DNA from: an uncultured Lachnospiraceae bacterium
Lineage (GTDB): Bacteria; Bacillota; Clostridia; Oscillospirales; CAG-272
Length of the DNA stretch: 64,000 nt
Direction of reading: 5' to 3'
Assembly (NCBI GenBank): GCA_964638675.1
Contig: CAZXAU010000012.1
Span: 1,927-65,926, forward strand
Below, one piece after another: positions 38,645 to 61,332 of the stretch. Below the pieces are notes generated by a model, which searched no databases, was not told where the DNA came from, and worked only from the letters and a program-made list of their open reading frames with translations. The position numbers and the translations under genes are program-made. How positions within the stretch are numbered: the first letter of the stretch is position 1; each line of letters opens with the position of its first letter.

Positions 38645-39553
38645 TCAATCGGTAAACAGCATTGATATTTTTGTCCAGTCATTCTGCGACATATATTTTT
38701 TGAGTGATTCTACATATTTTTTTCTTGAAGACGCCGATAAAAAGTTTGAATTGTCACCCGTGAGTGCATTGAGTGCGGCTTTATAGGCGGCTGAAGAAAT
38801 ATCATCAAGTTCATCTTTCTTTCCTGTGTAATTATCGAGCAGGATCTTTGAAAGATTTTCATCACGTTCATTCCGGGCGCTCAGAAGCTGTTCGGAATAG
38901 CTTTTCAGTGCGGAGCTCTCGGAGCTTGAACGCTTTTTTTCCAAATCGGAACGACCTGTACTATAGGCGTCCTCAAGTTCTCCTAGCGAATTTCTTTTCT
39001 TGTCGTTTGCATTTATTATAGCCGACTGACTGACGCCGAGCGAGGAAAGTCCTCGGGATTCGAGATATTCGGGAAGATATTTCATAAGTTTCATATATTC
39101 ATACTCCACTTCACGTTCATTTGCTTTACGCTTCTTTTCGAGTTCGCTGAGTTTTTCGGAGTATTCACTTTGAGCAGATTCCTTTGCTGAATTAAGGTAT
39201 TCATTAAGGGCTTTGACTGTCGAGTTATACTTGCCGTTTACGCTTTCTTCACGGAGCTCATTTATAAGCTTTGTGTATTCGTCGAGTGTTGCCGATGAAG
39301 TACTGCTACTACCGTTACTACCGGTATCAGATGTGGCAGATGAATTATTTTTCTGCTCTTTTTTCAGTTCATCTTTAAGCTTTCCGTTTTCGGCAGTCAG
39401 CTCGTCTTTGAGCTTGATGTATTCGGAAAGTCCGCCGTCTTTCGTGCTCACATATTTCTCAATAGGATAGTATGAGACACCGATTGATGAAAGTAATTTT
39501 TCAAGACTCGGAAATTCGGCAGAGCTTTTTGCCATTGAGCTGTTTTTTATCAT
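38645..39553 (-). CDS. coiled-coil, Ser-rich protein of unknown function (last gene of the late operon)
   Basis: A 302-aa protein with no TM segment, a low-complexity stretch SSATSDTGSNGSSSTSSA, and long heptad-like stretches. I recognise no catalytic motif. Confidence 0.5.
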   Translation of the reverse strand: MIKNSSMAKSSAEFPSLEKLLSSIGVSYYPIEKYVSTKDGGLSEYIKLKDELTAENGKLKDELKKEQKNNSSATSDTGSNGSSSTSSATLDEYTKLINELREESVNGKYNSTVKALNEYLNSAKESAQSEYSEKLSELEKKRKANEREVEYEYMKLMKYLPEYLESRGLSSLGVSQSAIINANDKKRNSLGELEDAYSTGRSDLEKKRSSSESSALKSYSEQLLSARNERDENLSKILLDNYTGKKDELDDISSAAYKAALNALTGDNSNFLSASSRKKYVESLKKYMSQNDWTKISMLFTD

Positions 39554-39719
39554 TTATATCTCCATTCCGCCGCCCTGTGGCGGCACAAACAGTTATGAAA
39601 TTCTCCTGCGTTTCCGAAGGAAAGTTTTCTTCGGAAACAAAAATGGCAGATCCCATTTTTAAGGAGAATTTGTGCGTGAAACAGATGTGCGTTGGCATCG
39701 TATGAACCCATCTTTCACG

Positions 39720-40589
39720 CTAGACCTCACTTTCAATAGTAACCGATCCACCTTCTTCAAGCGAGTTTACAAATTGCTGTAAAAGGTCGATTTTTTTTAT
39801 GATGCCTGTTCGGTATTCATCGGTTATGTAGTTATATGCACTGTACATTTTTATTGTACCGGTTATCAGAAATACTGCTATCTGAAGGCATGTCCAGATA
39901 AGGGCGGCATAGCTGAAGCTGTCGAGCAAGCGTACACCGTAATATCCGAAAACGGCACTGCTGATGATCTTCATAAGTACCTGTTTTTTCGACATCTGTT
40001 TTTCATATTCAAATTTGTTTCTTCCAAAGTCGAAAGGATCATCGTTTTTTCTCCCATTACAGGTTAAATCGCATCCGAAAAGGGTGGAGACCTTTATACC
40101 GACTGCTTTTTCATATGCTTTTGCTCTCTTTTTTTCAATTCCGTACAGCTTTTTTCCTGATGATGAATTGTAAAGCGGTTTATACGGCAGGGCATTTCCG
40201 TGTGAATCGAAACAGCTTGAATATCCGAGTCCGACGCTTGAAAGTATCCGTGTACGCTGTTTTTTCAGGTTTTCGAGATTCATTTTGTCGCACCAGGCGT
40301 CGAGCTTATCTATGTGGGGCGAAATTTTCAATATCCATTCTTCATGGAGAAGAAGAGTTCTTTTCATCCGCTCTTCTTTTTCGGCATTTCTCATTCCCTG
40401 AAGCTCGAAGATCTTATTCATACAAAAACCGAAGATAAAAGCAATGGTTCCGTCGGCGATTATTTTATACAGGCTTTTTCCTGTTTTGTCAATGGTGATA
40501 AATGAGCTGAGGAGATAGATGCACGAAATTGTGAAGGCAACGAGATATCCGAAATTATTCCGGAATCCTTCTTTGAATTTATCATTCAT
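39720..40589 (-). CDS. membrane protein (2 N-terminal + 2 C-terminal TM helices around a soluble ~170-aa domain)
   Basis: The hydrophobic segments are YLVAFTISCIYLLSSFI, GTIAFIFGFCMNKIF, LMKIISSAVFGYYGV and ALIWTCLQIAVFLITG. Its ATG overlaps the upstream stop (TAATG). Confidence 0.5.
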   Translation of the reverse strand: MNDKFKEGFRNNFGYLVAFTISCIYLLSSFITIDKTGKSLYKIIADGTIAFIFGFCMNKIFELQGMRNAEKEERMKRTLLLHEEWILKISPHIDKLDAWCDKMNLENLKKQRTRILSSVGLGYSSCFDSHGNALPYKPLYNSSSGKKLYGIEKKRAKAYEKAVGIKVSTLFGCDLTCNGRKNDDPFDFGRNKFEYEKQMSKKQVLMKIISSAVFGYYGVRLLDSFSYAALIWTCLQIAVFLITGTIKMYSAYNYITDEYRTGIIKKIDLLQQFVNSLEEGGSVTIESEV

Positions 40590-41014
40590 TATATTCTGCC
40601 GCTCCCCTCATACCCCGAATGGATCAGCTTTTCTGCCACATAATCCGAAACGCTATCATTTCTTATTTTTTCACGCAGGGAATTGACCTTGTGAGAAACA
40701 AGTATCAGGTTGAAGAATTCACCGAGAAGTGCCATTCCTGACAAAAGACAAAGATCATGTATCAGCGGTGCAAGAAGATAAGAAAGTATAAAGATCAGGG
40801 CAAAGCAACCTATGAGTTTTGGAATTTTAAATGATTCAAAAGCTTTCAGAACAAAAAAGAACAATGCCGTAATAAGACCGAATGTCAGCTTTATCCCGTT
40901 GTTTGTATTTCCGAAATAGATATTACGGCGTAAAATAAGTGTCAGTATCAGCGGAATTACGGACAGCAGAAAGCCGAAAATTTCATAAATTATCAGTTTG
41001 GTTCTGTCCTTCAT
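40589..41014 (-). CDS. 4-TM small membrane protein (holin-like size, unassigned)
   Basis: Four hydrophobic helices. SD GGGGGAG is spaced correctly for ATG 41014 (MKDRTKL...). It overlaps the 3' end of the upstream gene. Confidence 0.5.
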   Translation of the reverse strand: MKDRTKLIIYEIFGFLLSVIPLILTLILRRNIYFGNTNNGIKLTFGLITALFFFVLKAFESFKIPKLIGCFALIFILSYLLAPLIHDLCLLSGMALLGEFFNLILVSHKVNSLREKIRNDSVSDYVAEKLIHSGYEGSGRI

Positions 41015-41582
41015 TTTTTTCATCTCCCCCTTTATTTACGTTGTTTGATATTTCGGCAATCCGTTTGGCGTAGCCTTTACTCACGAGCTCGTCACTGTTA
41101 CAGAATGCAATTTCAAGCATACGCCGCACCGTTTTTTGTTCCTGTTCACATTTAAGGCTCATTTGCTCGACTTTTTTTATGCACTCATCTATCTTTTTCT
41201 GGCTTTCAGCATAGTTGAAGGTCGATTGTCTGACATCGTTTGTTGCACTTCCGAAACATTCTGAGGCGTTTTTCACCTTATTGATAACAGGCAAAACACT
41301 GATGTAAAGTGCACCAAGTGCCGAAATTACTGCGACAACGCTTGGAATTATGTTGTTTTTAATATAATCGATTATTTCGCTGTAACCTCCGCTTATGCCC
41401 TCGCCGTTCTTATCTTCCGATGTATCGGGAACACCGATCTGCATACCGACACTCTCGCCGGGATCGTCCTTGTCAAGTGATTCTGCCTGAGTGAAAAAGT
41501 GTGATGTGAATATGGCGTATATCATTACGGACATTATTGCAAGTGACAATACCCGAAAAGCTATTGATCGTATTATTCTCAT
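40983..41582 (-). CDS. bitopic/2-TM membrane protein with acidic linker and C-terminal coiled coil
   Basis: It starts at ATG 41582 after SD GAAAGGA. TM1 is FRVLSLAIMSVMIYAIF and TM2 is IIPSVVAVISALGALYISVLPVI. Confidence 0.5.
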   Translation of the reverse strand: MRIIRSIAFRVLSLAIMSVMIYAIFTSHFFTQAESLDKDDPGESVGMQIGVPDTSEDKNGEGISGGYSEIIDYIKNNIIPSVVAVISALGALYISVLPVINKVKNASECFGSATNDVRQSTFNYAESQKKIDECIKKVEQMSLKCEQEQKTVRRMLEIAFCNSDELVSKGYAKRIAEISNNVNKGGDEKNEGQNQTDNL

Positions 41583-41601
41583 ATTTTGTCCTTTCTGAAT
41601 A

Positions 41602-41859
41602 TTATGAATTTGTATTGTTTTCAAGTGCACTTATCCTGTTTTCAAAATCAGCTCTTGTTTGTTCGCATTCGGATATAAGAATTTCGATTATGGATAACAG
41701 TGATGAATTCTCATCAAGCATCGGTGCTGTCAGGGCATATTTGATGTCGAATGCCTTAAGCCCTGCAGCACTTGGCGAATCGGGAAGAGCCAGGGCAGAT
41801 TTTTTTCTGATCGTCTCTTTTGTTTCGGGGGAAACCGTCGAAAATGCTTTGGTTGACAT
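41602..41859 (-). CDS. hypothetical 85-aa protein
   Basis: An ORF with SD AAGGAGG upstream and a C-terminal amphipathic or coiled segment. No family is recognised. Confidence 0.45.
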   Translation of the reverse strand: MSTKAFSTVSPETKETIRKKSALALPDSPSAAGLKAFDIKYALTAPMLDENSSLLSIIEILISECEQTRADFENRISALENNTNS

Positions 41860-41870
41860 TTTAACCTCCT

Positions 41871-44516
41871 TTAATTGATTCCTGTATTATTTTTATTGAT
41901 CTTATATTTCACCGTCAGGGAATTGACGGTGCAGTCATATTCGTCTTCGGAAGAAAGTCGGAATCTGATGAAATTAAAATTACGTTCGTTTACATTCACC
42001 GAAAATGAGGATGAAAAGCCTGTTTCAAATGTTAGGTCGTTGAATGATATGTCATCGAGATCTATAGACGATATTCCTTTTGACGCAAATGAAGTGCGAT
42101 TGTTTTTTCTTGTTTCGTAACCGAATTTTATCCGACCGGTGCTGTTGCTTTCGGCATACAGTGTCATTTTCAGCAGGGTTTTGCTTTTTTCATTTGAGCC
42201 AAGATCGGTCACGGGTGTCACCCAACAGCTCTTTACAGGATCATATTGACAGAAGATTCCGGTCAGTATATCGCTTGGGAAATATGCACCGCAGAGATTG
42301 AGCGGATTTCCGTTGATGCTTTCCTTTATCATGAAGCTGTTGCCGGTTACCTTTGTCAGATACATATCCTTTCCGCAAAGGGGAATTATCAGCGGGAAAT
42401 ATCTTGACGGGTATACCCCTTCCGGTATGCTGTCAACATAGCTGCCGTCTTTATTCTTCAGCTTGAATACCGATCTGCCCCTGTCTATATCGGATATATA
42501 ATAGGGCGTGTCGGGGCTCAGACCTCCTATCGATACCATTCCACTTCCAACATAAACCTCTTTTCCTTCCCAAATGCATGAAAAGCTCATGCCATCTGAC
42601 ACGTTCATTCCTGCGATATCAACATAGTGGAAGATATTCGAGCCGTCAACGTCACTTTCGGGATTCATACTTACGCTTCCGTCCTGATTAGGATTGCTAT
42701 CAGGCTGTACATAAACATTCACAACTTCTGCATAAATACTGCAATCATCCAACCTTACGGTATCGTTTTCTCTCAGCGGAAAGCGTTGGTTATAAACAAA
42801 GTAGCCTTTGTCTACATTCGGAGTTATATCGCCTTCGGTGATCTCATACAGCGTTTTATCTGTGAAATCATCATCGAAAATGCAGATCTTACCTTTTTCT
42901 GTTCCGAATGCAAGCATACTTCCGATCTTTCCCCATACTCTTGCGGATATATTGGTAAAGTGCCACCATTCGTATGAGAAGCTTCCGTTTGGCGATTCTT
43001 CAGGGATAAATTTGCTGTCAGATGGTGCGACATAACAGTCATCTCCGATCGACAGGTACAAGCTGCCGTTGTGAACCGTCGCCACTGCATCGGTGAGTTT
43101 TTTATTGTTCCTGAACACATTTCTTATCGTGCATGACCGTTCTTTTGCATATCTCGTATCGGTATATATATTTCCCGATCTTTCCAGACCGAAGATTCCG
43201 TTTTCGGACAAAAATACATTATCTCCGCAGAAATTCAGAGCACAGTGCTGTGACAGTGCAGACTCACCGGTATTTCCTGCCTTTACAGAAAATACAGTTG
43301 TTGTAGTTTTTTCATCCTGAGAGTAGCTTTCTTCTCCCGTACGGTAGAATACACAAGCTTCATTTGCACGGTTTTTAAGGATAGCAAGAGTCCCGTCCGA
43401 AAGGGGAAGATAGCAGACAACACTTGAACTGTCGTTACCGAATGCTGTAGCATTTACATCCGGAAAATATGTGGGATCTGAGTATTCCGAATAGAAATCA
43501 ATGTTTGGATATAAGGGATTTCCTGAAACAAACAGTCTGTCAGGCTTTCCTCCCGGACCGTACATGACAGCTATATTTGTCTGGGTAATGCGTTCGGAGG
43601 TATCCTCAAAATCAGGACAATATATCACTTCAATATTCGGAGAGTGACCCGGCGGAGTTGTCGGAACCGAAAATGAAATTTCGCCCTTGTTCCTGTCGAC
43701 CGTTCCGCAGGAGTTGGAATCGTATTCGGGATAATCAATAGCTGTTCCGTTTTTACGGGTATAGTACAGGCGATCTTTGAAATAAGAACCGCTCTCGGCA
43801 GTATATTCCTTAATTGTCTCATAACCCTCAGATCCTTCGAGCAAGCTCATATTTATCCTGACTTTTGAGCCGTTTGCGATCCTGTCACTGTCGAGTTTCC
43901 ATTTTTTGTTTGTTTCCGGACAGCCTATAAGCAAATTTCTCACATAAGGCGACAGCATATTTACATTTTCAAAAAAAGAAACATTCTCAGTTGTAACCGA
44001 ACTGTTTTCTATATTTGTTGTTGTTATCGGGATGTATGTATCGCTGTTATTGTAGACCCGTCTGAGCTCATAATCAAAGCTGTCGGAAAATTTACCATAG
44101 ACGAGATAATCTCCGCAACCCACGATGTAAAGCTTGTCTTTGACATAAAAAGCCATCGATTTTGAATCGCAAATACGTGATCTGTCGATATTAACACCGT
44201 AATTCAGTTCCTCGGGTTTGGTTATATACTTGTCTTTGATCTGCGATATGTAGAATTTATTACCGCAATGGATCACTATTACATCTTTGCCGTTCTGTCT
44301 GTAATTGAATATGCCGTTAATTTTTCCGTCAAGAGTTGCAAGCTCCCGATATCCGTTTCTCTTATGCATGATTTTTCCGATGCCGATGAAGTTTTCTGCC
44401 GCACTTGCACGTGAGGGAGAAATGTGTCCGTCGTCATGAGAGAGATCTATCCCCTTGAATGTATCGAGAGTATAATTGTATCTGTCTTTCAGTTTGATCG
44501 TGCTATCGTATCCCAT
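41871..44516 (-). CDS. large tail/baseplate-like structural protein (882 aa)
   Basis: ATG at 44516 follows SD AAAGGAGG, 13 nt after the stop of the giant gene. The sequence is beta-rich and repeat-like. The role is assigned by position only. Confidence 0.55.
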   Translation of the reverse strand: MGYDSTIKLKDRYNYTLDTFKGIDLSHDDGHISPSRASAAENFIGIGKIMHKRNGYRELATLDGKINGIFNYRQNGKDVIVIHCGNKFYISQIKDKYITKPEELNYGVNIDRSRICDSKSMAFYVKDKLYIVGCGDYLVYGKFSDSFDYELRRVYNNSDTYIPITTTNIENSSVTTENVSFFENVNMLSPYVRNLLIGCPETNKKWKLDSDRIANGSKVRINMSLLEGSEGYETIKEYTAESGSYFKDRLYYTRKNGTAIDYPEYDSNSCGTVDRNKGEISFSVPTTPPGHSPNIEVIYCPDFEDTSERITQTNIAVMYGPGGKPDRLFVSGNPLYPNIDFYSEYSDPTYFPDVNATAFGNDSSSVVCYLPLSDGTLAILKNRANEACVFYRTGEESYSQDEKTTTTVFSVKAGNTGESALSQHCALNFCGDNVFLSENGIFGLERSGNIYTDTRYAKERSCTIRNVFRNNKKLTDAVATVHNGSLYLSIGDDCYVAPSDSKFIPEESPNGSFSYEWWHFTNISARVWGKIGSMLAFGTEKGKICIFDDDFTDKTLYEITEGDITPNVDKGYFVYNQRFPLRENDTVRLDDCSIYAEVVNVYVQPDSNPNQDGSVSMNPESDVDGSNIFHYVDIAGMNVSDGMSFSCIWEGKEVYVGSGMVSIGGLSPDTPYYISDIDRGRSVFKLKNKDGSYVDSIPEGVYPSRYFPLIIPLCGKDMYLTKVTGNSFMIKESINGNPLNLCGAYFPSDILTGIFCQYDPVKSCWVTPVTDLGSNEKSKTLLKMTLYAESNSTGRIKFGYETRKNNRTSFASKGISSIDLDDISFNDLTFETGFSSSFSVNVNERNFNFIRFRLSSEDEYDCTVNSLTVKYKINKNNTGIN

Positions 44517-44529
44517 TGTTTGCCTCCTT

Positions 44530-47500
44530 TCATTCGCTTTCCACCTCGATATAAGTATAGACATTGGGATCAGGCATTCTCAGTGTCGATTTATATGTAT
44601 TCAGTATTGAATGGTCTTCGCTGTAGGGAACTGCAAAGACACAGTCTGTGCGGCGGTTGTCGAGACAAACATCGTAATCAATATAGGGGGGGACTTTTCC
44701 TTTGAATTCAACCCTTTTTAATTTTGAGGTACCGAAGAATACATATGTACTGAGCTTTTCTATTCCGCTTCCTAATACAACCGATTCAATACCGATATTC
44801 TTAAAGGTTGTCACAAGTTTTCCGGTAACGCTGTCGGGTATTGTGCAATCGATAAGGTTACAATCGATGAAGGCTGAATCAAGAAGCGTTTTTACACTGT
44901 CCGGTATTCTGACATGCTTTATCGTATATATATATCCGAAAACCAAGCTGCCAATTTGAATAACCGGCAAACCGTTATGAGTTGATGGTATATTGATCGT
45001 TTCGCATACTCCTCCCGAAAGACCATTGCCGTGTGCAACGCTCCCGTCTCCTATCATGTATGATACGACCGTTCCGTCAAAACCTTCCTGATTTTCACGT
45101 TTTCCCGATATATCAAGTCCTGTATAGACAAGATATTGACAGGGTTCATATGCCGAGACCTCAATTTTGATATTATCACTGACATTCGGTATATATATCT
45201 TTCCGATTTCTTCATTTGTATATGTGTCATAGGTTATCTGCTCTTTACCCATTTTTATGAGGTAGTTGGTTATCATTTTACCTTCTTGAGGGATGATATT
45301 TGCAGAAAATGAGCCGGAGTATTCAATATATTCGGGTAGGTTATCGATTGAACACCCTACGCCTATGAAAGTCACGCTCGGATTGATATGTTCGTAAACC
45401 ACCGTGATCTCGGGGTAACGCTCCGATATTTCGTCAAGCTCCAAGAGTGATACTGAGGGAAGGTGTATTATTCCCTTAACGGTTGCCGAATACATCCGAT
45501 CGAGTGCCGTCCGAAGGCTATACAGCTCGCTTTCATGCTCAAGGCAGAAATCAAAATTGACCCATCTTACAACCGACCCATCGGGCATGCTTTTGATGAT
45601 ATACGGAACATCAATTGTATTTCCCGGAATATTCTCAATGTTTATTGCTGTGAGATTTTCGACACCGTAAAGAGTGCATTCGGTAAGATATGGCTGATTT
45701 CTTATTGTCAGAGACGTGATACTTGCCGGCAGATTCAGCTTTTTGAGAATTCCGCCGTTTGGGAGAGCAAGCGACGTAATTCTTGTATTGTCAAAATAGG
45801 CATTTTCTATATTTGTACATCCCGACAGATCGACAGGTCTGCGAAGATTCAGACAGTTGCGTGCATCGATCGTCTGAAGCATTCTGAGATTTCCGATTGT
45901 CAGATCGGTGAGATTGGGATTTGAGTAATCCTGAGAAGGGTCGCCTACCTTGAGAGTGCGTAGATTTCTTGCCATATGGCAGTCGAGCAGACCCACCTTT
46001 AAGCCTGACAGATCACCGATATCCTTCAGCTGAGATGCCGAATATATGATTATTTCGGTATCATTTACATTTGAGAGCGGATTTTGCAGAGTATATGAAT
46101 TATCTTTAAAGCCTCTCGTGCTGACAGTATACGAACCGTACTTGACACATGGGTAAATGTCGGCGTACGGTGTTACGGTGATGTCGGCTTTTGCATAACC
46201 TCGCATCTGTATATAATCGGAGAGAGCGTCACCCGCATGGTATTTGCTGTCGATATAGCGGAAACGGTTATACAGCCACCATTTTCTCTGCTGTTCCTTT
46301 GAGCCCTGAAGCATAGGAAGATATGTAGCATCATTGTTCAGGATCAGCGGAAGAATACATTTTGAATATGAGTCCTCATTGAATATTGCTGCACTCCATT
46401 TTTCCTGATGCTCTTCAAAACGCTTCTCTGTTTCATCATAACTGATGATCGATGAGGTCCTGAGCGACTTATACATTTCCGCAATTTCATCGCTGAATGC
46501 ATCACGGAGATTGCACCAGAAAACCGAATCCTGACCGTTATATACATCGGCACCCGAAAAAGTATCTCTGTCTTCGAGAGAATAACCGAATACAAGAGAA
46601 CCTTCATTGTTTATTCCGATGGCGGTATCCATATCATACGGTATCCAGAACCATCTGTTACCCCCGTCGCCTTCCACGCGGCTTTTATAGTATGTTGGGA
46701 ATGCATTTTTTGCCCTTGAGTCAACGAGCAGAAAAAGCTCGGTGAAAAGGTAATAGTAGATAGATGAGTCAATGCTGAAATGATCGGATAACTCATTTTT
46801 GAATTTAGCGAGACGGTATTCGGGAGTGTCGTGTGTATAAGTGACACCGCCGTATGTCACGGATTTTGAGAGTTTAATTCCGGTTGCCGCTTCACGGTTG
46901 GTTGAGACTACCCATGAAACCATCTCGTGAAGCTTTGTTTTATCGCTGTTACCGTCGGGGTATCTTCCCTCAAAATCCTTGAGCCAGCTGTCTCCTTCAA
47001 AATTATCCGATTTGAAAAGAACCCTGTCAGAGGTGTTGTTAAGTATTTCCCAGCTTTCATCTCCCTGTTCAAATCCGAACAGCTCCTCACTTCCTTTATC
47101 GTTGTTGAAATTCATTTTTGCGTAGAAGCTGCTTTCGTTTCCGTCATTGTGAAAAGCCACTATCGGAAATCCGTCGATCCCGACACGCACACGGCTGTCT
47201 GCCTTTTGCGGTGGCACTTTGAAGGGCTGTGCGTCGTTATACAGCCTTACAAGCTCAACGTTGTTCGCTCCCTCTGAAGATGCAACATCTGCCTTGAAGG
47301 TGAAGGCATCGACCGGGATCGAACCGTCACGGATAGAATACATGTTGCTTGTGCTGTCATCACTTGTAAATCCGTTTTTGAATTTTATCTTGAAGTTTTT
47401 ACGGAAGTAGAACTGAGAGGATGTACCCTGAACATTTATTTCCGTACCCTTCGATCTAAATGATCTGCTTTTGCTGAACGGATCGGTGAATTCAATGTCA

Positions 47501-49959: not shown

Positions 49960-49972
49960 TACCAACCTTCTT

Positions 49973-50560: not shown

Positions 50561-50747
50561 CTTTTTTCTCCTTTCTTGATCCGTTTTTCAGTCGATTGAA
50601 AGTATCGGATCAGAAAATATTTTATGATAATGGGTAATGGGGAGAGGGGATTTTTTACTATGAAAATATTTTTTCACAAAATTGGAGTTTGTTCCTCATA
50701 TCGGTCAATAAAAAATTTTCTCCCCCTTTGACTCCATTTTTCGTGAA

Positions 50748-50784
50748 GCCGCAGAAATGTCTTTTGAAAATGACATTCTGCGGC
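50748..50784 (-). terminator. strong hairpin (partial terminator/processing signal) just downstream of the capsid gene
   Basis: GCCGCAGAAATGTC / GACATTCTGCGGC, about 13 bp with one bulge. It lies 20 nt after the capsid stop on the minus strand, and only a weak U-tract follows. Confidence 0.4.
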
Positions 50785-50803
50785 ATTTGGTGTCTGCGTT
50801 TAA

Positions 50804-52560: not shown

Positions 52561-52579
52561 TTATATTTCCTTTCGTAAA

Positions 52580-54373: not shown

Positions 54374-54573
54374 CTGCCTCCGTTCTTTTCGTCAAAGGTC
54401 GTTTTTTTCTTTCCGTTGAGCCATTCGTCGATTATTTCAGAATTGTCTTCAAGCTTTAAAGATTCGCCGTATATTCTCTTTTTATCTGTCAGATTGAGAA
54501 GATAATCGACAAGATCTTCAAGATGTTCGATCCGTCTTACTGTCTCGAGATATTCTTTTTTGCGAATAAACAT
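54370..54573 (-). CDS. hypothetical 67-aa protein
   Basis: An ORF between the terminase and portal genes, with a 4-nt overlap with the portal start. Confidence 0.4.
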   Translation of the reverse strand: MFIRKKEYLETVRRIEHLEDLVDYLLNLTDKKRIYGESLKLEDNSEIIDEWLNGKKKTTFDEKNGGR

Positions 54574-54615: not shown

Positions 54616-56451
54616 CTACCATTTGATATAATTTACCGATGGTCTGCCTATTTTAAAATTGTCGGAAATAAAGCTGTCCTGTGGCATTTCAGGGGAATTA
54701 AGCGATTGCAGTTGTTGTTTTGAACAAAAATGTGCAATGGCAAGTGCCATGACCAGATCGTCGTGACAGCCTTTCATTGCTTCGGTGCTCCCATTTTCCT
54801 TTCGTATGAATGTCAGCATTTCGCGAAGTGTCGGCCTGTCACATTCGAGTGTCGGATCGCACCGCATTGCTGATACAAGCTCTCCGATGATTATCGGTTT
54901 TGTTCGTCTTGTTGTTTCAAAGCCTGTCACTGTCTGAATTTCGTCGACACTTTTGTCAAGTCTTTCCCGTCTGTACAGATTTGTATATCCGTATTTTTGC
55001 TCTATTACCCTGAGCGGTTCACGACTGTAGTTGGTTTCGATTGCAATAAGTGCATTGTTATAGTATTTTGCAAGACAGAGCATCTGCTCGGCGTATATAT
55101 CCTCATCGATTCTCTGAACATGCAGTGTGGCAACAGTCCTTTTATTTCGGTTATCTATGACCTTTCCGGTATAGTAATCGTCACCGGCACCCGATGTATC
55201 GCCTCCGAGTACATAGGGTGCGACTCTCAGTATGTTGCCCAATGAATCGTATTCGGTATACGGCTTTTCATGCAATGTAATGTAACCATCCGATTTTTCT
55301 GCAAAGTGTATATTCTCAAGCGAATATGACATATCGCATATCTGTCCGCACTCATATACCGGGCTGACCTTTCTGTCGTATTCAAATATACCCCTGATGT
55401 TATTTTCTTCATTAAGCGATAGAAGCCTGTTTTCTATCTGTTCTTTGTCAAAAATACAGTTACCAGACGATATGAATGCCTCTTCAGGCGTTACCGGATA
55501 TTCCTGACGTATAAGCCGTTTGTCGAGATATGACGAGTATTTCCGGCAGTACCATGCGATCTGTTCACGGTCAAGCCCTTTATTCTCGAGGAGCTTTATC
55601 CGTTCGCTCAGCCATTCGTCGTTTGTCTCAAGGTATTCGTATTCACTGCAGCGGTATTCATCGCTTCTCCACCATTCATAAAAGAGGTTTACACATGCAC
55701 CAGAATCCCAAAGGTCTTTACTCTCCCCGAAGCCGTTTGCGGTGCTCTCATAAATTCTGACAGCGTTTTCGGTCATTGCTTCGCCGATTCCTGCCTGAAG
55801 ATCGGAAAGCGAGCAGTCATAGAATGCCACCTCTGAAAAGTGAACAAAGCTCAGTGTGCGTGACCTTCCGACATTGTCGCTCGCCGTGGCAACACGCCAT
55901 GAGGAATTCAGTTTTTCAAAAAAAAGCTCCTTTGCTGAATTGTATTTCTCTTTAGGGCGAAGAATATCGGGCAGTCTTGAATATACCATTCTTGCCTTAT
56001 CATTGAATATCGACAGTGTATTGTCTCCTCTGTCGGCAAGTGTAAATCCCGAAAAATTTTTCTGGACTATTGCATAGGCAAGCTGCATTGCGGTTATGAG
56101 TGTTGTAAATCCCTGTTGACGTCCTTTAAGTATGAAGAATGGCTTTGAAGTCCCGAAGCGCTCGAATTTTTCGATAAAATCCTGTTGTACTTCATTGAGA
56201 AAGAATGGAACCGTTCGCTTTTTCTTGTCAACAATTGTAAATGTCGCCTCGATGAGAAGATAGGGTTTGAGCTGTATTTCATTCCGCAATTCTTTGTTTG
56301 AGAGTATTTCCCTTGCGGCGGCGGTGGTGAGCAGGGTGTCATATTCTCCGTCATGTCTCTCCTGCCACCGGTCTTTTCTTTTTTTGACTATTTCGCAAAG
56401 TGTCACGTTATTACAGATCCTCAAACTTTTTGACACTTGTTTCAAGCTCAC
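54616..56451 (-). CDS. terL: terminase large subunit
   Basis: A 611-aa protein with an ATPase region KGRQQGFTTL and a C-terminal nuclease-like half. The start is ambiguous: GTG 56451 (overlapping the upstream ORF) or GTG 56406 (after a GAGGA SD). Confidence 0.85.
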   Translation of the reverse strand: MSLKQVSKSLRICNNVTLCEIVKKRKDRWQERHDGEYDTLLTTAAAREILSNKELRNEIQLKPYLLIEATFTIVDKKKRTVPFFLNEVQQDFIEKFERFGTSKPFFILKGRQQGFTTLITAMQLAYAIVQKNFSGFTLADRGDNTLSIFNDKARMVYSRLPDILRPKEKYNSAKELFFEKLNSSWRVATASDNVGRSRTLSFVHFSEVAFYDCSLSDLQAGIGEAMTENAVRIYESTANGFGESKDLWDSGACVNLFYEWWRSDEYRCSEYEYLETNDEWLSERIKLLENKGLDREQIAWYCRKYSSYLDKRLIRQEYPVTPEEAFISSGNCIFDKEQIENRLLSLNEENNIRGIFEYDRKVSPVYECGQICDMSYSLENIHFAEKSDGYITLHEKPYTEYDSLGNILRVAPYVLGGDTSGAGDDYYTGKVIDNRNKRTVATLHVQRIDEDIYAEQMLCLAKYYNNALIAIETNYSREPLRVIEQKYGYTNLYRRERLDKSVDEIQTVTGFETTRRTKPIIIGELVSAMRCDPTLECDRPTLREMLTFIRKENGSTEAMKGCHDDLVMALAIAHFCSKQQLQSLNSPEMPQDSFISDNFKIGRPSVNYIKW

Positions 56452-56773
56452 CGCCGATATTCAATGTTGTTCTGCCTTCGGCAAGTGCTGCCTTATCGTA
56501 GACCGATGATATCACCGAACTGAGCTTGCCCATATCATCGATTTTAAGAACGGCGAGATTTTTAGCGATCGTACGCCGCTGTTCGTCGGTCAGCTCATCA
56601 TGGGGAAGTGATGAGATCTCCTCTATTATCATATCGATCGCATCCTCGTTTTCGGCAGCTCTTTTAAGACGTTTTTTCAGCAGAGTCTGAGAAAGCGATA
56701 ATATATCCCATGAATTTTTGATGAATGCCGAGCGCTTTGTTTCTGATATCAGATTTTTGTCACTTTTTTTCAT
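56411..56773 (-). CDS. putative terminase small subunit (by position only)
   Basis: A 120-aa helical protein immediately upstream of terL. I recognise no diagnostic motif. Confidence 0.35.
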   Translation of the reverse strand: MKKSDKNLISETKRSAFIKNSWDILSLSQTLLKKRLKRAAENEDAIDMIIEEISSLPHDELTDEQRRTIAKNLAVLKIDDMGKLSSVISSVYDKAALAEGRTTLNIGGELETSVKKFEDL

Positions 56774-56959: not shown

Positions 56960-57436
56960 TTAACACTGCCGATATCCATCATTGATTCCTGGATAAGCCT
57001 TTGCCCTGTCTATTGATTTCAGTATACCGGCAATTTTACCTATAATTATATAGGTTCTTTTCTGTATGCCTTCTTTTGTGTAACCTATCTCCTTACCAAG
57101 TTTTTTGTATGGCGTTTTGTTTATATATCCGTCAAGAATGATTATTCTGTCAAGCGGATCGAGAGTTGCAATAAGCGGATAATATTTTTCCTTGAGTATC
57201 AGCGTGCGTGATATGATCTGCCTGAATTCTTCACAGCAGTCATACGGTCCGGCGATGTTGCTGTTTTCGTAAGATTCGTTTTTTTCAAAAGTTTCAGGAA
57301 CGGCATATTCATTTGAAATCTTGTGCTCGCATTCATATTTTTCTATGCATTTGGTAAGTGAATTCAAATCACGTTCGAGCAAACGAAGCTCCTTAAGCTC
57401 CTCCCTGACAGTATAGAAGTATTCATCTTTTTCCAT
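56960..57436 (-). CDS. phage late-gene activator candidate (sigma-70 region-4-like HTH)
   Basis: The C-terminus LDPLDRIIILDGYINKTPYKKLGKEIGYTKEGIQKRTYIIIGKIA resembles the region 4 HTH of sigma or ArpU/DUF1492-type regulators. ATG at 57436 follows SD GGGAGGG. Confidence 0.5.
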   Translation of the reverse strand: MEKDEYFYTVREELKELRLLERDLNSLTKCIEKYECEHKISNEYAVPETFEKNESYENSNIAGPYDCCEEFRQIISRTLILKEKYYPLIATLDPLDRIIILDGYINKTPYKKLGKEIGYTKEGIQKRTYIIIGKIAGILKSIDRAKAYPGINDGYRQC

Positions 57437-57438
57437 TA

Positions 57439-57534
57439 TCAATCCCTCCCGGCTCCCCGGAAAAGTGCAATTGTCATAAAGAAAAAGATAACCCCGATGA
57501 CAGTGAAAAAGAAGAAAGTAAAAGACGACATCAT
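57439..57534 (-). CDS. 31-aa hydrophobic mini-protein (MMSSFTFFFFTVIGVIFFFMTIALFRGAGRD)
   Basis: Found by hand translation. Its ATG overlaps the cro-like stop (ATGA). Its last codons contain the SD of the next gene. It has a single predicted TM helix. Confidence 0.35.
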   Translation of the reverse strand: MMSSFTFFFFTVIGVIFFFMTIALFRGAGRD

Positions 57535-57737
57535 TGTATCACCGCCGTGCTTTCGAGAAGATAATCCATACTCATTCCGGGGAACACTCCGGATATCTTC
57601 CTGATTTCCGAGAGTGTGAATTCACTCTTACCGCTGAGCTTGTTGGCTGCCGTCCTTTCACTGATACCGAGCATTTTTGCGAAGTCTTTCTTTTTCATCC
57701 CCCGTCTAGCGAGTTCTGCATTCAAGTTTGGAAACAT
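57531..57737 (-). CDS. Cro-like XRE-family HTH protein
   Basis: A 68-aa protein with the HTH KKKDFAKMLGISERTAANKLSG, divergent from the cI-like gene. Confidence 0.75.
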   Translation of the reverse strand: MFPNLNAELARRGMKKKDFAKMLGISERTAANKLSGKSEFTLSEIRKISGVFPGMSMDYLLESTAVIQ

Positions 57738-57784
57738 ATGATTTTAACCTCCTGTATTTTACCCCACAGGGTATTTGCATATAT

Positions 57785-57813
57785 ATTATATACCCTGTAT
57801 CGTATTTTGTCAA
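57785..57813 (-). promoter_or_regulatory. consensus lytic (cro-side) promoter
   Basis: On the minus strand: TTGACA (57813-57808), a 17-nt spacer, then TATAAT (57790-57785). Confidence 0.6.
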
Positions 57814-57844
57814 TAGGCTTTTACGATTTGGGGTAAATTATCTA

Positions 57845-57873
57845 TTGACAAAAAGTGTAAAGCAGTGTATAAT
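57845..57873 (+). promoter_or_regulatory. consensus repressor-side promoter
   Basis: TTGACA (57845-57850), a 17-nt spacer, then TATAAT (57868-57873). Confidence 0.6.
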
Positions 57874-57902
57874 CGTTTGAGATGATTTTGGAGAGTGAAA
57901 AA

Positions 57903-58325
57903 ATGTTTCTTGATAATCTTGAGCAGCTGATGAAAGAAAGAAAATGGAACAAGAGGACGCTTGCAAGAGAGAGCGGAGTGCCGTACACAACGATTGACGG
58001 CTTCTATAAAAAAGGAAGCGACAATACAAAGCTTTCTACTTTGCTCAAAATTGCATCGGCACTTGATGTTTCTATTGATCGGCTTGTCGGCGGAGAAGAT
58101 TTTTCAGTCAGTGAGAAAGAGAAAAAAATTATTTGTGCATACAGGAATAATCCCGAGATGCAGGGCGCTGTTGATAAATTGCTTGGTGTCAGAGAATCTA
58201 CAAAAGTCGTGGTCTATAGGGCGGCGTATTCTGAGGACAGACATCCGGATGGTTTTGAGGAGCTTACTGTTGATGAGTATGAAAAACTCAAGAGAGCACC
58301 GGATACGGACGACGACCTCATGTAA
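57903..58325 (+). CDS. cI-like XRE-family repressor
   Basis: The HTH is WNKRTLARESGVPYTTIDGFYKK. ATG at 57903 follows SD GGAGAG. Confidence 0.8.
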   Translation: MFLDNLEQLMKERKWNKRTLARESGVPYTTIDGFYKKGSDNTKLSTLLKIASALDVSIDRLVGGEDFSVSEKEKKIICAYRNNPEMQGAVDKLLGVRESTKVVVYRAAYSEDRHPDGFEELTVDEYEKLKRAPDTDDDLM

Positions 58326-58343
58326 TACCAAAAATATGCATTT

Positions 58344-58931
58344 TTGAAGAGTGCCTACGGAAAATACAAGAACATCAGAGACGGTGCATGGCAGTGTCTT
58401 TGTGATAATAATATTTCGTCACTGCCCGTTGATGTTTTGAAAATCGCAAGAGAATCTGACATTAAAGTTATAAAAAACAGCAATATTCATGCGTTGCGAA
58501 AGGGAGAAATAGGGCTTTCCTTTTTTGACGGAAAAGATTGGTTTATAGTCTATGATGACAGTGACTCTATCGAAAGGGCGAGATTTACTATAGCCCATGA
58601 GATGGGGCATATTTTTCTGGGACACTGTCTTGACTATGCAAATGAAAGAACTGCGAGAAGAGTAACATTTGAGGGAAGGCAGGAAAGCGAAAAAGAAGCA
58701 GATATGTTTGCCGCACGGCTGTTGTGTCCGGCATGTGTTCTTTGGGGACTTAATGTACATACGCCGGAGGAGATAGCAAAATACTGCAAAGTTTCAGCAC
58801 GTGCTTCCAAGGCTCGTGCCTCACGAATGAACGTATTGTATAAAAGAGGAAAATTTCTTCAGTCGCCGCTCGAAAGAGAGGTTTTCACAAGGTTCAAGGG
58901 ATATATTGACAGTATGCTTGATAAGAAATAA
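58344..58931 (+). CDS. ImmA/IrrE-family metallopeptidase (anti-repressor protease)
   Basis: The HEXXH site is in FTIAHEMGHIFLGH, and the gene lies directly downstream of the repressor. It has an apparent TTG start. Confidence 0.8.
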   Translation: MKSAYGKYKNIRDGAWQCLCDNNISSLPVDVLKIARESDIKVIKNSNIHALRKGEIGLSFFDGKDWFIVYDDSDSIERARFTIAHEMGHIFLGHCLDYANERTARRVTFEGRQESEKEADMFAARLLCPACVLWGLNVHTPEEIAKYCKVSARASKARASRMNVLYKRGKFLQSPLEREVFTRFKGYIDSMLDKK

Positions 58932-59108
58932 TGGTAATATGATCACTCAAATAAATCGTCTTGATTGAGCCTGATATATTTTCAATATCAGGCGCTCGCA
59001 CTCAAAGGTGGTGTCCGATTCTTAAACAAGTTTTTTATTTTTTATGCAAAAATACCAAAAATGAATAGTTTCATTTTAATGAGTCAAATAAAGTTATCGG
59101 CAATCCGC

Positions 59109-59215
59109 TTGTGCAAAACTTTGTGCAAAACGCAAATAACTTTGCACAAAGGTCTATTTTCAGGCAATTAAATGAAAATAAACATATGTTTTATGTGCAA
59201 AACCCTGTGCATAAT
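59109..59215. repeat. cluster of TGTGCAAAAC-type repeats (iteron / degenerate DnaA-box-like)
   Basis: Two direct copies of TTGTGCAAAAC lie at 59109-59119 and 59121-59131. An inverted copy TTTGCACAAA lies at 59141-59150. ATGTGCAAAAC is at 59193-59203 and CTGTGCATAAT at 59205-59215. One further copy, CTGTGCAAAAC, is at 61401-61411. Confidence 0.55.
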
Positions 59216-59335
59216 GTGTGTTATTATACATAGATAGAAAATCTTAATTAATAAATGTTACAAAAATGAATATATTCTGACAATATATCGCGCAGTCATT
59301 TACTGACGGTCAATCTGAAAAAATCGGAGAAAAAA

Positions 59336-60355
59336 ATGAAAATAACAGTAAATTACGGAGAAGGCGTTCTTTCGCTTCCTCTCGGAGTTATGGAAAAAAT
59401 AGAAAATATAGGCGAAAACGAGCTCAAGCTTCTTATGTACATCTGTCGTGAATCTGCCAAAGAGAACAAATATGAGGCAGAAAAGGCGGCTGTGGAACTC
59501 GGAATTTCCCCTGTTGAAGCAGAGTCGGCAATTGCCTTTCTTCGCGGTGCAGGGCTTGTCAAGGTGTCCGGTGCGAAAAAAGGTGACAAGTCAGGAGCTA
59601 AAAGCGACAATAGTTTTTCAACGCCTATGGATTCAAAAAAGGTCTCACGTGAGGTCAGACTTATCAGTGATACGCCGCCGCAGTATTCTGGGGCTGAGCT
59701 TGACGCATTTGTTCATTCAAACGATGTGATAGCCCGTCTCGTGAAGGAGGCTGAAAGCGAAAAAATGTTCGGAAAGCCTCTCACTCACGCAGATCTGAAT
59801 AAGCTTGTCAGTCTTGTAGACTATTTTTCGCTCGATGAAGCATACGTCCTTCAGCTTCTTTCGATCTCAAAGGATAAGGAGCGACCGATGAGCTATGCAT
59901 TCAAGGTCGGAGCTGATTTTTATTCGAGAGGTATACTGACATTTGATCTGCTTCTTGAAGAGCTTGCAAAGCTTGAGGAGAGAAACGGATTTGAGAAAAG
60001 GATGAGAAATCTTTTCGGAATAGAAAAGCGTTCGCTGACATCAAAAGAAAAGAAATTTTTTGAAGCATGGCAGACTTACGATCTTCCGCTCGTCGAGTAT
60101 GCTTATGAAATGACGGTTGACTCGACCGGATCTCCCAGCATGCCGTATATGAACAAGATCCTCACATCCTTAGCTGAAAAGAAGATAAGAAGTGTAGATG
60201 ATGCCAAACGTGAACAGGAGAGATTCAGACAGCAAAACAAAGCCACAGACGGCAGTTTTGATGAAAAGGACTTTTTTGCGATAGCACTTGAGGGAAGCTA
60301 CAAGAAAGAGGAAAACAGTAAGAGAGAAAACAAGAAGGGAAGTAACGACTCATGA
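59336..60355 (+). CDS. DnaD/DnaB(Bsu)-domain replication initiation protein
   Basis: It has an N-terminal winged-helix-like region and two C-terminal DnaB_2-like repeats (LNKLVSLVDYFSLDEAYVLQLL.., FFEAWQTYDLPLVEYAYEMTV..YMNKILTSL). Confidence 0.7.
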   Translation: MKITVNYGEGVLSLPLGVMEKIENIGENELKLLMYICRESAKENKYEAEKAAVELGISPVEAESAIAFLRGAGLVKVSGAKKGDKSGAKSDNSFSTPMDSKKVSREVRLISDTPPQYSGAELDAFVHSNDVIARLVKEAESEKMFGKPLTHADLNKLVSLVDYFSLDEAYVLQLLSISKDKERPMSYAFKVGADFYSRGILTFDLLLEELAKLEERNGFEKRMRNLFGIEKRSLTSKEKKFFEAWQTYDLPLVEYAYEMTVDSTGSPSMPYMNKILTSLAEKKIRSVDDAKREQERFRQQNKATDGSFDEKDFFAIALEGSYKKEENSKRENKKGSNDS

Positions 60356-61332
60356 AATTCAGTCAGGGGACGACTGCATCGATAAGGGCACTCTTTGAAA
60401 ATCGGCAAAGAGCGGCAAATGAAGGTGCCGAAAAAAGAAAAAAAGAGTTGCATGAAAAGATAAGCGGCGTAAAAGATATTGATGAAAGACTTGAGAAAAC
60501 AGGAATTCTTATTCTTGATGAGATAGCCAAGGGACATGACGGCATTGATGGAAGAATTGCAAGAATCAGAGCGGAAAATGAATTGCTGATCAATCGCAGA
60601 AACGCACTGCTGAAAATGAACGGATATCCCGATGACTATTCCGAACCGAGATATCATTGCAAGATCTGCTCGGACAGCGGATATTCAAACGGATATCAGT
60701 GTGTCTGTTTCAAGGCAGAGCTTGCAAGATTGGAGCTCGAGCGTTCAGGACTTGGAGTGCTTGCTTCAAAGCAGTCGTTCGATAACTACGATATAGGTTT
60801 ATTTGATGAAAAATACCGTGAGAGGGCAAGAAGAAATAAGGAAATATGCAGCTCTTATGCCGACAGCTTTTCAAAAAAATCTGACAATCTTCTTTTTATG
60901 GGTTCTACAGGTCTCGGCAAAACGCATATGTCCACTTCAATAGCCGTGAAGGTCATAGAAAAGGGATATTCTGTGGTTTATGTTTCGTCGCAGACAATGA
61001 TATCCGATTTTGCATCGCTCAGATACGGAATGGGTAATGCCGAGGAGGACGAGAAAACAGAAAAATATTTTGATTGCGATCTTTTGATAATTGACGATCT
61101 CGGTACAGAATTGCAGACACAGTTTTCGGTATCTGTAATATATAATGTTATCAACTCACGTCTGTGTAACGATATGCCTATGATAATCAGTACCAATCTT
61201 ACACCGCAGGAGCTTAAAAAAATGTACGCCGAGCGTATTACAAGCCGGCTTTTCGGAAATTTTTCTCCGCTTCTGTTTGAAGGCAGGGATAACCGTATGG
61301 TAATCAAAGAAAAGAAACTGATGAATCAGTGA
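60352..61332 (+). CDS. DnaC/DnaI-like helicase-loader ATPase
   Basis: It has a Cys-rich N-domain (CKICSDSG..CVC), Walker A GSTGLGKTH and Walker B LLIIDDLG. It overlaps the upstream gene by 4 nt. Confidence 0.85.
   Translation: MKFSQGTTASIRALFENRQRAANEGAEKRKKELHEKISGVKDIDERLEKTGILILDEIAKGHDGIDGRIARIRAENELLINRRNALLKMNGYPDDYSEPRYHCKICSDSGYSNGYQCVCFKAELARLELERSGLGVLASKQSFDNYDIGLFDEKYRERARRNKEICSSYADSFSKKSDNLLFMGSTGLGKTHMSTSIAVKVIEKGYSVVYVSSQTMISDFASLRYGMGNAEEDEKTEKYFDCDLLIIDDLGTELQTQFSVSVIYNVINSRLCNDMPMIISTNLTPQELKKMYAERITSRLFGNFSPLLFEGRDNRMVIKEKKLMNQ

Follow-up and report, generated by a model that had tools for sequence, protein, structure and literature searches.

A probable reduced, non-autonomous podovirus-like prophage between ftsH and a host helicase-loader operon in an uncultured member of the Clostridia

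Defective prophage PBSX of Bacillus subtilis, whose late operon is switched on by Xpf, a sigma-like factor under the control of an Xre-type repressor (PMC4243946), packages host DNA (PMC12946183). More recently, a podovirus-like gene transfer agent (GTA) of Faecalibacterium, FpGTA, was described (Borodovich et al. 2026); it is encoded by a 10.5-kb operon that is near-ubiquitous in the genus, forms ~40-nm particles with 8.4–8.9 kb of DNA, keeps its fibre and lysis genes at a second locus, and has a small terminase subunit (TerS) without an obvious DNA-binding domain, for which reference was made to the TerS of RcGTA (PMC12946183). GTA-type packaging was reported to be prominent in Ruminococcaceae and Oscillospiraceae, and among the metagenome-assembled genomes (MAGs) examined a candidate gene cluster was found only in Faecalibacterium (PMC12946183). 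Lateral transduction by integrated pac-type prophages, such as S. aureus 80alpha and Salmonella P22, is a further related process (cited in PMC12946183). Here, we describe an element of ~20.4 kb (positions ~38,615–59,050) in a 64,000-nucleotide stretch of the genome of an uncultured Lachnospiraceae bacterium (contig CAZXAU010000012.1, positions 1,927–65,926; hereafter the window, to which coordinates refer), which lies between ftsH and a host dnaD-like/dnaC-like helicase-loader operon. In our judgement it is probably a reduced, non-autonomous prophage derived from a widespread, uncultured ~40-kb podovirus-like phage family of Clostridia. Within this reading, an inert remnant and a still-productive PBSX/GTA-like element are about evenly balanced, and the chance that particles are still being produced is somewhat less than even.

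Genes were assigned from the map of open reading frames (ORFs) together with hidden Markov model (HMM) searches against Pfam, PHROGs and NCBIfam, and the gene list and order of the original prediction, which had been read from the letters alone, were borne out in this way. The element keeps a cI/ImmA switch facing cro and a late operon that runs from TerS to a tail nozzle, together with membrane and coiled-coil proteins. As had been proposed, it has no recombinase: integrase, excisionase and transposase families of the three libraries were absent from every ORF at 38.6–59.3 kb, and neither a recombinase nor a replication gene was found in any ORF between ftsH and the dnaD-like gene. Likewise, no recognisable endolysin was detected with these libraries, the PHROGs search that had been suggested for every ORF revealed no hidden integrase or lysin family, and the family profiles of the proteins g897 (the nozzle), g289, g302 and the late regulator had no match when such folds were sought by PDB sequence search. 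The non-coding gaps do not exceed 404 bp and therefore leave no room for a decayed recombinase or any other sizeable hidden gene; a novel lysin fold among the window ORFs is possible. Thus, as expected of a GTA, the locus is a chromosomal structural cluster without replication or integration functions.

The closest relatives of the element are phages of a ~40-kb family (IMG/VR 3300012983_000012 and 3300012979_000081; TerL of 'MAG TPA Caudoviricetes' records), which have the same late gene order and whose large terminase subunit (TerL), portal and capsid proteins are 50–69% identical to those of the window. The window TerL has 3,361 homologues at E ≤ 1e-30 in IMG/VR and metagenome assemblies, the nearest being 66% identical; many family contigs measure 39–42 kb, and the late gene order is common to 60+ mapped IMG/VR loci and ENA/Logan contigs. 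Cultured relatives this close were not found, as the best TerL and the best major capsid protein among 50,697 phage records were 29% and 35% identical, respectively. In the family plan, a cI/cro switch (in some members) is followed by 7–8 kb of early genes, which encode exonuclease, ERF/RecT-like, NinB, HNH and single-stranded DNA-binding (SSB) proteins, a replisome organiser, a DnaC-like loader and methylases, and in some relatives also anti-defence proteins. Then come a sigma-like regulator, small ORFs, TerS with an N-terminal helix-turn-helix (HTH) domain and TerL; next portal, scaffold, capsid, a protein of 107–123 amino acids (aa) and the homologue of the adaptor-like g195; next the homologue of g897 and a 184–744-aa fibre protein, often with a diversity-generating retroelement (DGR) behind it; and next the homologues of g215, g144 and g289 and a 420–680-aa homologue of g302. 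In every relative whose contig reaches beyond the g302 homologue, a polyvalent protein of 2,000–2,900 aa follows (L046 12609–20825, L060 13182–19310, L062 12719–20239, L157 from 19487 onwards), which carries ART-PolyVal, PBECR3/5, LPD3/38, MuF_C and DUF3990 domains. These giants are the 'polyvalent proteins' of Iyer et al. (PMC5512222) and are presumably ejected with the DNA. Besides the head genes, the window shares with the family the sigma-like regulator upstream of terS, the g215/g144/g289 trio and the g302 homologue, and with some members cI/cro.

Two accessory features of the family were also recorded. The DGRs, consisting of a reverse transcriptase (PF00078) and a ~360-aa variable protein, were seen after the fibre gene in many members (L009 17112–19592; L011/L046; L020 18772–19866; L054) and are absent from the window. 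Anti-defence proteins of Tad2-like and Acb2/Tad1 hairpin type lie just upstream of terS in relatives (L156 8899–9141; L157 2092–2543).

The family does lysogenise, since one full-length member lies within a 935-kb chromosomal contig (ENA NODE_5_length_935696). Yet among 79 non-structural proteins of seven ~40-kb relatives (family loci sampled in alignment A4: L011, L016, L020, L022, L046, L060, L062 and L065), there was neither a tyrosine/serine recombinase nor a member of a known lysin family, and the other scanned relatives' proteins, three giant proteins included, contained no known lysin. The lack of integrase and of lysin in the window is therefore, at least in part, a trait of the family as sampled rather than a sign of decay. 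An rve DDE transposase in L065 was considered as the family integrase and rejected, for it is IS-like, carries transposase HTH domains and is only one of the 79 proteins. As for the ends of integrated relatives, which were sought in contig A, in L039/L159 and, to ±10 kb, in the 935-kb prophage contig, the left end of contig A has cI/cro and no integrase. In L039 (1–2071), no early genes intervene between the terS region and the genes that precede it, a glycoside-hydrolase-like 441-aa gene and an HTH-membrane protein gene; this stretch could be either host flank, with attP then upstream of terS, or phage morons.

Compared with these phages, the element of the window is half as long and has gained an extra 1,829-aa protein. 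As in cryptic prophages, essential modules of its intact relatives are missing, namely the early block, the distal fibre, the giant protein and the 107–123-aa gene; the DGR and the HTH domain of TerS are absent as well. The ORFs between the regulator and TerS are not present, ftsH follows directly after g302 where the giant would stand, and cro is separated from the late regulator by only 88 nt, which hold a 31-aa ORF. That no early recombination or replication module lies between cro and the terminase genes had been noticed before and is confirmed, and the relatives do have one, the nearest (TerL 66%) being a full phage with its early block in place. One suggestion made earlier was that of an unusual podovirus-like temperate phage, which holds for morphology and family and fails for autonomy, as the 7–8-kb early block is missing. 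Such a complete phage would have to integrate by means of a host recombinase and to replicate with the help of the adjacent host loader. Its family, as sampled, indeed has no integrase, yet one member is integrated in a chromosome, and the element adjoins the host dnaD/dnaC operon and lies within 5 kb of the replicative helicase gene. However, every relative examined, the closest included, brings its own replisome organiser, DnaC-like loader, SSB and recombinase, whereas the window has none of these; moreover, origin-like repeats are absent from the window, the giant polyvalent protein is missing, and 20.4 kb would half-fill a capsid built for ~40 kb. We therefore regard a complete temperate podovirus as very improbable.

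All long ORFs are intact, as first reported: no frameshift or premature stop interrupts the coding sequence (~18 kb), not even in the ORFs of 1,829 and 881 codons, and neither pseudogenes nor relaxed constraint were seen in the remaining genes. In a leave-one-out test, the window breaks 4 of 180 family-invariant positions in TerL, 3 of 104 in the portal, 4 of 86 in the major capsid protein and 2 of 32 in the nozzle, and such breaks are no commoner than in equally divergent bona fide phages. The statement that intact ORFs argue against simple decay was nonetheless too strong, because the element is short of at least six modules or domains that its relatives have. These absences would fit an inert cryptic prophage in early decay, from which deletions took the early block, the fibre, the giant and the ends, the rest being intact only because too little time has passed. 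The gene g85, which looks like a fibre-gene stub, the shortened g302, a 166-bp scar-like gap at 39554–39719, the lack of att repeats and the occurrence of the element in one strain only point in the same direction. The uninterrupted ~18 kb of coding sequence does not, nor do the clean gene borders at which every deletion ends, the perfect consensus of both switch promoters, and the fact that at least one 'loss', that of the TerS HTH, is ancient and selected. An inert remnant is hence a serious possibility, although we would stop short of calling it probable.

The packaging and head genes are as follows.

56411–56773, minus strand: small-terminase homologue of 120 aa, by family alignment, without the N-terminal HTH domain
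54616–56406, minus strand: TerL, 596 aa as called (phrog_2, 2e-21)
54370–54573, minus strand: g67, a small ORF between TerL and portal whose position is conserved in the family
52580–54373, minus strand: P22-like portal (PF16510, 6e-12; phrog_156, 1e-31; alignment)
51697–52560, minus strand: scaffolding protein (weak PF09306; conserved position; 40–51% identity to relatives)
50804–51667, minus strand: major capsid protein (phrog_267, 1e-32; 61–69% identical to ~40-kb relatives)
50561–50803, no strand: non-coding gap with a hairpin, 243 bases where relatives encode the 107–123-aa protein

The portal scores 45.2 bits against PF16510 (P22_portal; gathering cut-off 26.1) and is thus of the P22/T7 type, and it is without the last 45–60 residues of the relatives' C-terminal helix. 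The capsid protein is 61–69% identical to those of ~40-kb genomes, and the head is therefore probably full-size rather than reduced. The TerS homologue, which had been given with a question mark, is real, but its DNA-binding domain is gone. An N-terminal HTH domain of ~50 residues is present in 13 of 13 aligned relatives' TerS, where it matches HTH folds in the PDB (2jn6 at 1.3e-4), and in the window TerS there is none, nor is any remnant of it found upstream of the window terS. Judged from sequence, the window TerS would accordingly lack a sequence-specific DNA-binding domain, as is expected of a GTA. When 1.84 billion representatives were searched exhaustively with HMMER, one further HTH-less 120-aa TerS was found, P0361, which is 72% identical and lies on an 815-nt contig (NODE_219505 of ERZ13405070) between the C-terminus of the regulator, from which a short spacer separates it, and the start of TerL; no more members of this lineage were found in IMG/VR or JGI metagenomes. 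Between the two genes pN is 0.16 and pS 0.81 (saturated), with dN/dS below ~0.1, so that the short TerS has long been established in a sub-lineage under selection and did not arise by a recent truncation. Ordinary phages and domesticated elements would both fit as members of this sub-lineage.

Such a TerS invites the reading that the element is a domesticated GTA/PBSX-like viriform, i.e., a switch-controlled operon that packs chromosomal DNA without sequence preference, while a second locus, as in FpGTA, would hold the lysis genes and perhaps more structural genes. The HTH-less form is kept under strong purifying selection in a second element, and the TerS of FpGTA also has no obvious DNA-binding domain (PMC12946183). 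In addition, the structural and packaging ORFs are intact whereas nothing is left of any replication, recombination or integration genes, the late regulator follows tightly on cro and the mini-ORF, the logic of repressor and sigma-like factor resembles Xre/Xpf of PBSX (PMC4243946), and the composition is like that of the host (G+C content at third codon positions, GC3, 0.434 vs. 0.426). However, the three nearest genomes seen have no orthologous element beside dnaD, and the other member of the lineage is one 815-nt contig with no counterpart in IMG/VR or JGI metagenomes, which would speak against clade-wide vertical retention; moreover, the capsid probably forms a full-size head, the locus holds no lysis gene, and the short TerS could be a trait of a normal phage sub-lineage. 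We hold a domesticated viriform to be a tentative reading, unlikely rather than likely. Compared with FpGTA by description, not by sequence, the element is similarly a podovirus-type chromosomal cluster in related Clostridia, with a TerS that has no DNA-binding domain, TerL, portal, scaffold and capsid, without replication or integration genes and with lysis genes outside the main operon; it differs in its 20 kb, its capsid protein of 40-kb-phage type, its own cI/ImmA/Cro switch and its presence in one strain.

The immunity switch and the late regulator were assigned as follows.

58344–58931, plus strand: ImmA/IrrE-type M78 metallopeptidase, an anti-repressor protease (PF06114, 3.5e-13; phrog_1914, 9e-40)
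57903–58325, plus strand: cI-type repressor (PF13443, PF01381, PF07022)
57738–57902, no strand: switch region with two divergent promoters and nested inverted repeats
57531–57737, minus strand: Cro-type HTH protein (PF13443, PF01381)
57439–57534, minus strand: hydrophobic mini-ORF of 31 aa, read from sequence
56960–57436, minus strand: sigma-region-4-like late regulator (weak matches to phrog_36, 2e-6, phrog_1740 and TIGR02937; family alignment)

Both divergent promoters, at 57845–57873 (plus) and 57813–57785 (minus), match the sigma-70 consensus at 12 of 12 positions, and the nested inverted repeats TTTACCCCA/TGGGGTAAA and ACAGGGTAT/ATACCCTGT form operator-like palindromes. The immunity switch of an autonomous temperate phage is thus present with cI, ImmA, Cro, promoters and palindromes; the cI of the window is 36% identical to that of relative L029. 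The mini-ORF reported to lie between cro and the regulator does exist; it overlaps the stop of cro at its start and ends 2 nt ahead of the regulator gene, so the abutting genes for Cro, the 31-aa peptide and the regulator probably form one short operon. The regulator gene is placed like late activators upstream of terS, and the profile of its family had no match in the PDB.

The arrangement of an HTH repressor followed by an IrrE/ImmA metallopeptidase, facing a Cro-type gene, is that of the ImmR/ImmA modules of ICEBs1 and Gram-positive phages, and by analogy with these the window ImmA would cleave the repressor upon an inducing signal. If so, DNA damage would activate ImmA, which would cleave cI; the cro promoter would fire and the late regulator would be made directly, leading to the production of capsids, terminase and short tails. 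Without excision or replication, any packaging must start on the chromosome, and the terminase would act only on chromosomal DNA in situ; as TerS has no HTH, packaging may be sequence-unspecific, and lysis functions from elsewhere would be required for release. While the identities of the genes, the membership in the family, the missing modules, the host origin of dnaD/dnaC, the fold of the nozzle and the conservation of the short TerS are shown, it is the induction, expression, particle formation and packaged content in this scheme that we infer from the genes. PBSX offers a likeness in being a defective prophage without integration or replication functions under a repressor and a sigma-like factor; in contrast, PBSX is myovirus-like with a contractile tail, has its own lysis genes, packages 13 kb, and shows no sequence relationship to the element. 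Likewise, by analogy with lateral transduction, a terminase acting in situ would pack adjacent host DNA in headfuls, here in the order terS, late genes and then ftsH-hpt-tilS-dnaB. However, excision and replication follow later in 80alpha and P22, so far as they are cited there, and their TerS is sequence-specific; the element of the window shares none of this.

The tail genes lie next on the late strand.

49973–50560, minus strand: g195, probable head-to-tail adaptor, whose position after the capsid gene is conserved in the family
44530–50019, minus strand: g1829, receptor-binding-type protein of 1,829 aa with CotH-like and BspA-type leucine-rich repeat (LRR) domains (Pfam, PHROGs; LRR matches in the PDB)
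41871–44516, minus strand: g897, tail nozzle of T7 gp12 / P22 gp10 type, 881 aa (phrog_3287, virion structural protein; AlphaFold2 and Foldseek)
41602–41859, minus strand: g85 (family alignment, gene maps)

The nozzle is 881–897 aa long, depending on the start, the called one being 16 codons downstream. The profile of its family had no match in a PDB sequence search; an AlphaFold2 model from 32 sequences (pLDDT 79.9, pTM 0.79), searched with Foldseek against the PDB, matched 9k09_U (8e-19), 8ck1_A (1e-17), 7ey7_s of T7 (5e-15) and 8eap_D, gp10 of P22 (1e-9), and the nozzle chains matched are those of cyanophage A4, Carin-1, T7, Kp9, SU10 and P22 gp10. On the strength of this model, the 881-aa protein folds like a podovirus tail nozzle. 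The family profile of g195 matched the 'Head to tail adaptor Gp50' (9d83_B) weakly (E 0.0026), and its position and size fit. No tail tube or tape measure family was found in any ORF with Pfam and PHROGs, in agreement with the original prediction; this is, however, not a loss, since a podovirus with an adaptor, a nozzle and a receptor-binding protein has a short tail in which neither is expected.

The N-terminal domain of g1829 is adaptor-like and a paralogue of g195 (35% identical), while residues 340–1200 are 48% identical to a 1,673-aa protein of siphovirus NatCom_3357, which is encoded after the tape measure protein, Dit and Tal and before holin and endolysin. As its gene stands between adaptor and nozzle, an insertion compared with all relatives seen, g1829 looks by sequence like a receptor-binding module that was swapped in. 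In turn, g85 is only the N-terminal anchor domain of the family's 184–744-aa tail-fibre protein, and the distal fibre is absent. The whole recalls the virion module of T7 and P22 in the order portal-scaffold-capsid-adaptor-nozzle, followed by fibre and internal/ejection proteins, in the nozzle fold and in the P22_portal family. It differs in that sequence identity is ~6–10% at the level of the fold, the host is Gram-positive, and the 'gp16-like' giant is replaced by polyvalent effector proteins in the relatives and absent in the window.

The left end is occupied by membrane and coiled-coil genes.

40983–41630, minus strand: g215, two-transmembrane/coiled-coil protein, conserved in the family
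40589–41023, minus strand: g144, small protein with several transmembrane segments, holin-like in size, conserved in the family
39720–40589, minus strand: g289, four-transmembrane protein, conserved in the family (alignments)
39554–39719, no strand: 166-bp gap with a hairpin between g302 and g289, whose homologues abut in relatives
38645–39553, minus strand: g302, coiled-coil protein, shortened homologue of the 420–680-aa family protein (BLASTP)

The five small proteins of the late strand thus measure 85, 215, 144, 289 and 302 aa, and three have several transmembrane segments. A role in ejection or lysis may be proposed for g289 from its sequence; it has no PDB match, and a single-sequence AlphaFold2 model was unusable (pLDDT 38.6). 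In the alignment of g302 with the relatives only a central block (LKKYLP..GLGGLGVS) is conserved, and no Pfam, PHROG or PDB match was found. The homologue in the relatives precedes the giant polyvalent protein; g302 is a probable internal virion or ejection protein.

The element is bounded by the following features, and the host operon stands to its right.

38583–38614, no strand: left-edge hairpin, G+C-rich with flanking A/T runs, read from sequence
58932–59050, no strand: right junction zone with a hairpin after immA
59336–61332, plus strand: host operon of a dnaD-like gene (DnaB_2 domain) and a dnaC/dnaI-like helicase-loader gene, outside the element

The left hairpin falls between the ftsH stop (38505) and the g302 stop (38645), and it is probably, to judge from its letters, both a bidirectional terminator and the left edge of the element. 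This junction was assembled independently in two other samples, and both junctions occur at 100% identity in contigs from three different SRA runs, which rules out an assembly chimera. No att-like direct or inverted repeats of at least 10 bp were found between the junction zones. As for an empty site, the related genomes examined were not syntenic around ftsH, no record of the exact FtsH protein was found, and one scan of genome contigs gave only two Avispirillum MAGs; a degenerate pattern of the boxes upstream of dnaD had no match in JGI metagenomes, a result that is unreliable, as one known JGI contig should match. With a GC3 of 0.434 vs. 0.426, element and host are indistinguishable, and base composition favours none of the readings.

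Independent Logan assemblies from different SRA runs break at shared points, at 39624 in the g289–g302 gap (two assemblies) and at 53129–53137 inside the portal gene; a co-resident related phage or polymorphism of the 39.6–53.1 kb segment could explain this. Phage satellites as known so far encode an integrase as well as a primase or replication initiator, whereas tail genes are usually missing from them. A satellite of the type of capsid-forming phage-inducible chromosomal islands (cf-PICI), with its own capsids and other functions from a helper phage of the same family, would match the compactness of the element, its capsid and packaging genes and, if a related phage were co-resident in those samples, the breaks at 39624 and ~53130. 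The pattern of the element is the opposite, however: an integrase and replication initiator of its own, together with reliance on helper tails, are not what is seen, as it has no integrase or replication genes and carries its own adaptor, nozzle and receptor-binding protein. A satellite is accordingly very improbable too.

The original prediction named the DnaD-like and DnaC-like genes as the only replication genes, and the right-hand 2.3 kb of its span (59336–61332) took them in; this span is corrected here, as the two genes form a host operon. The DnaC-like protein matches the NCBIfam equivalog NF005304 end to end (283.8 bits, cut-off 215) and has 6,930 homologues of uniform length and smooth identity gradient, many on long MAG contigs named Ruminococcaceae, Oscillospiraceae or Clostridia. 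Co-linear orthologues of both loader genes, at 51–62% identity, lie in Ruminococcaceae/Oscillospiraceae MAG contigs. In the three nearest genomes with context (DnaC 54–62% identical), the DnaB_2-domain gene adjoins the loader gene, as in the window, and phage genes are absent from the vicinity of dnaD, where spoVA, rnf-like and murA-type genes are found instead; in two Avispirillum MAGs the pair adjoins tsaD. The loader pair thus occurs in a non-phage context in related genomes, in line with the suggestion, also made at first, that the element was inserted next to the dnaD/dnaI-type operon of the host. Vertical inheritance, in the sense of an orthologous cluster at the same locus across the host clade, was not seen in three related genomes.

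Upstream of the host dnaD-like gene, at 59110–59215, there are two pairs of TGTGCAAAAC-NN-TGTGCA(A/T)AA boxes. Paired TGTGCAAAAC boxes recur upstream of the orthologues in three related MAG contigs (L151, L152, L155), and the Avispirillum contigs (L146, L147) have the variants TGTGGAAAAC/GTTTTCAACA; host DNA therefore starts by ~59,050–59,110. The boxes resemble DnaA boxes and, on this likeness of sequence, may mean DnaA control of the helicase-loader operon. To the left of the element are the host replicative helicase gene (DnaB_C/DnaB domains; 4 kb away), tilS, hpt and ftsH (33082–38505), and a host replication-gene neighbourhood (33082–38505 and 59336–61332) is split by the element. Hence two of the features first listed are reassigned: the loader is the host's, and the missing tail tube is podovirus anatomy.

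Several points weigh against a reduced, non-autonomous prophage. Expression and particle formation are no more than predictions from its genes. The closest full relative is only ~60–66% identical, and the losses could for that reason be lineage differences and not deletions. The sampled family is also without recognisable integrase and lysin, so that it is mainly for want of the replication block, the fibre and the giant protein that the element can be called 'defective'; the family's route to lysogeny, shown by the member in the 935-kb contig, might still operate in the element, and other parts of the genome, beyond the 64-kb window, might encode the missing functions.

The boldest form of the domesticated reading would be a working GTA from a second, independent podovirus lineage in Ruminococcaceae/Oscillospiraceae-type Clostridia, with a ~40-kb head, a cI/ImmA-Cro-sigma switch and in-situ chromosome packaging starting beside dnaB, ftsH, dnaD and dnaC. 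We think this decidedly unlikely; if true, GTA-type packaging that has so far been traced to no gene cluster in gut Clostridia would have a candidate source in this element. In either case, a large uncultured phage family (>3,000 TerL homologues, ~40 kb), with polyvalent ejected proteins, DGRs and anti-defence genes and without recognisable integrase or endolysin, is anchored to a Gram-positive, spore-forming host. Its reduced form appears to keep just the parts for building and filling particles under an intact damage-responsive switch, which would make it a concrete GTA candidate. Even if it is only a dead prophage, the annotation is corrected, as the 'phage replication genes' are a host helicase loader and the missing tail tube is podovirus anatomy.

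Other observations concern the host and its relatives. Between a small gene and the dnaD-like gene of the related MAG contig L151 (~8370–8640), three tandem copies of a ~97-bp unit (…GTAAGGGGCACTCGGAATGGTCGAAAAACTCCCTCGGCGGTGCGCCGATTTTTCAC…) were seen. A lone tRNA-Arg(CCG) stands at 19013–19089 (minus strand) in the window, and none of the scanned ORFs near it encodes an integrase. The germination protease (Peptidase_A25) encoded at 21468–22394 (minus strand) indicates a spore-forming host. As well, a sortase-dependent pilus locus at 5638–12950, with a 1,289-aa tip-like protein, an LPXTG backbone pilin, a sortase and a Cna_B protein, confirms the Gram-positive envelope of the host.

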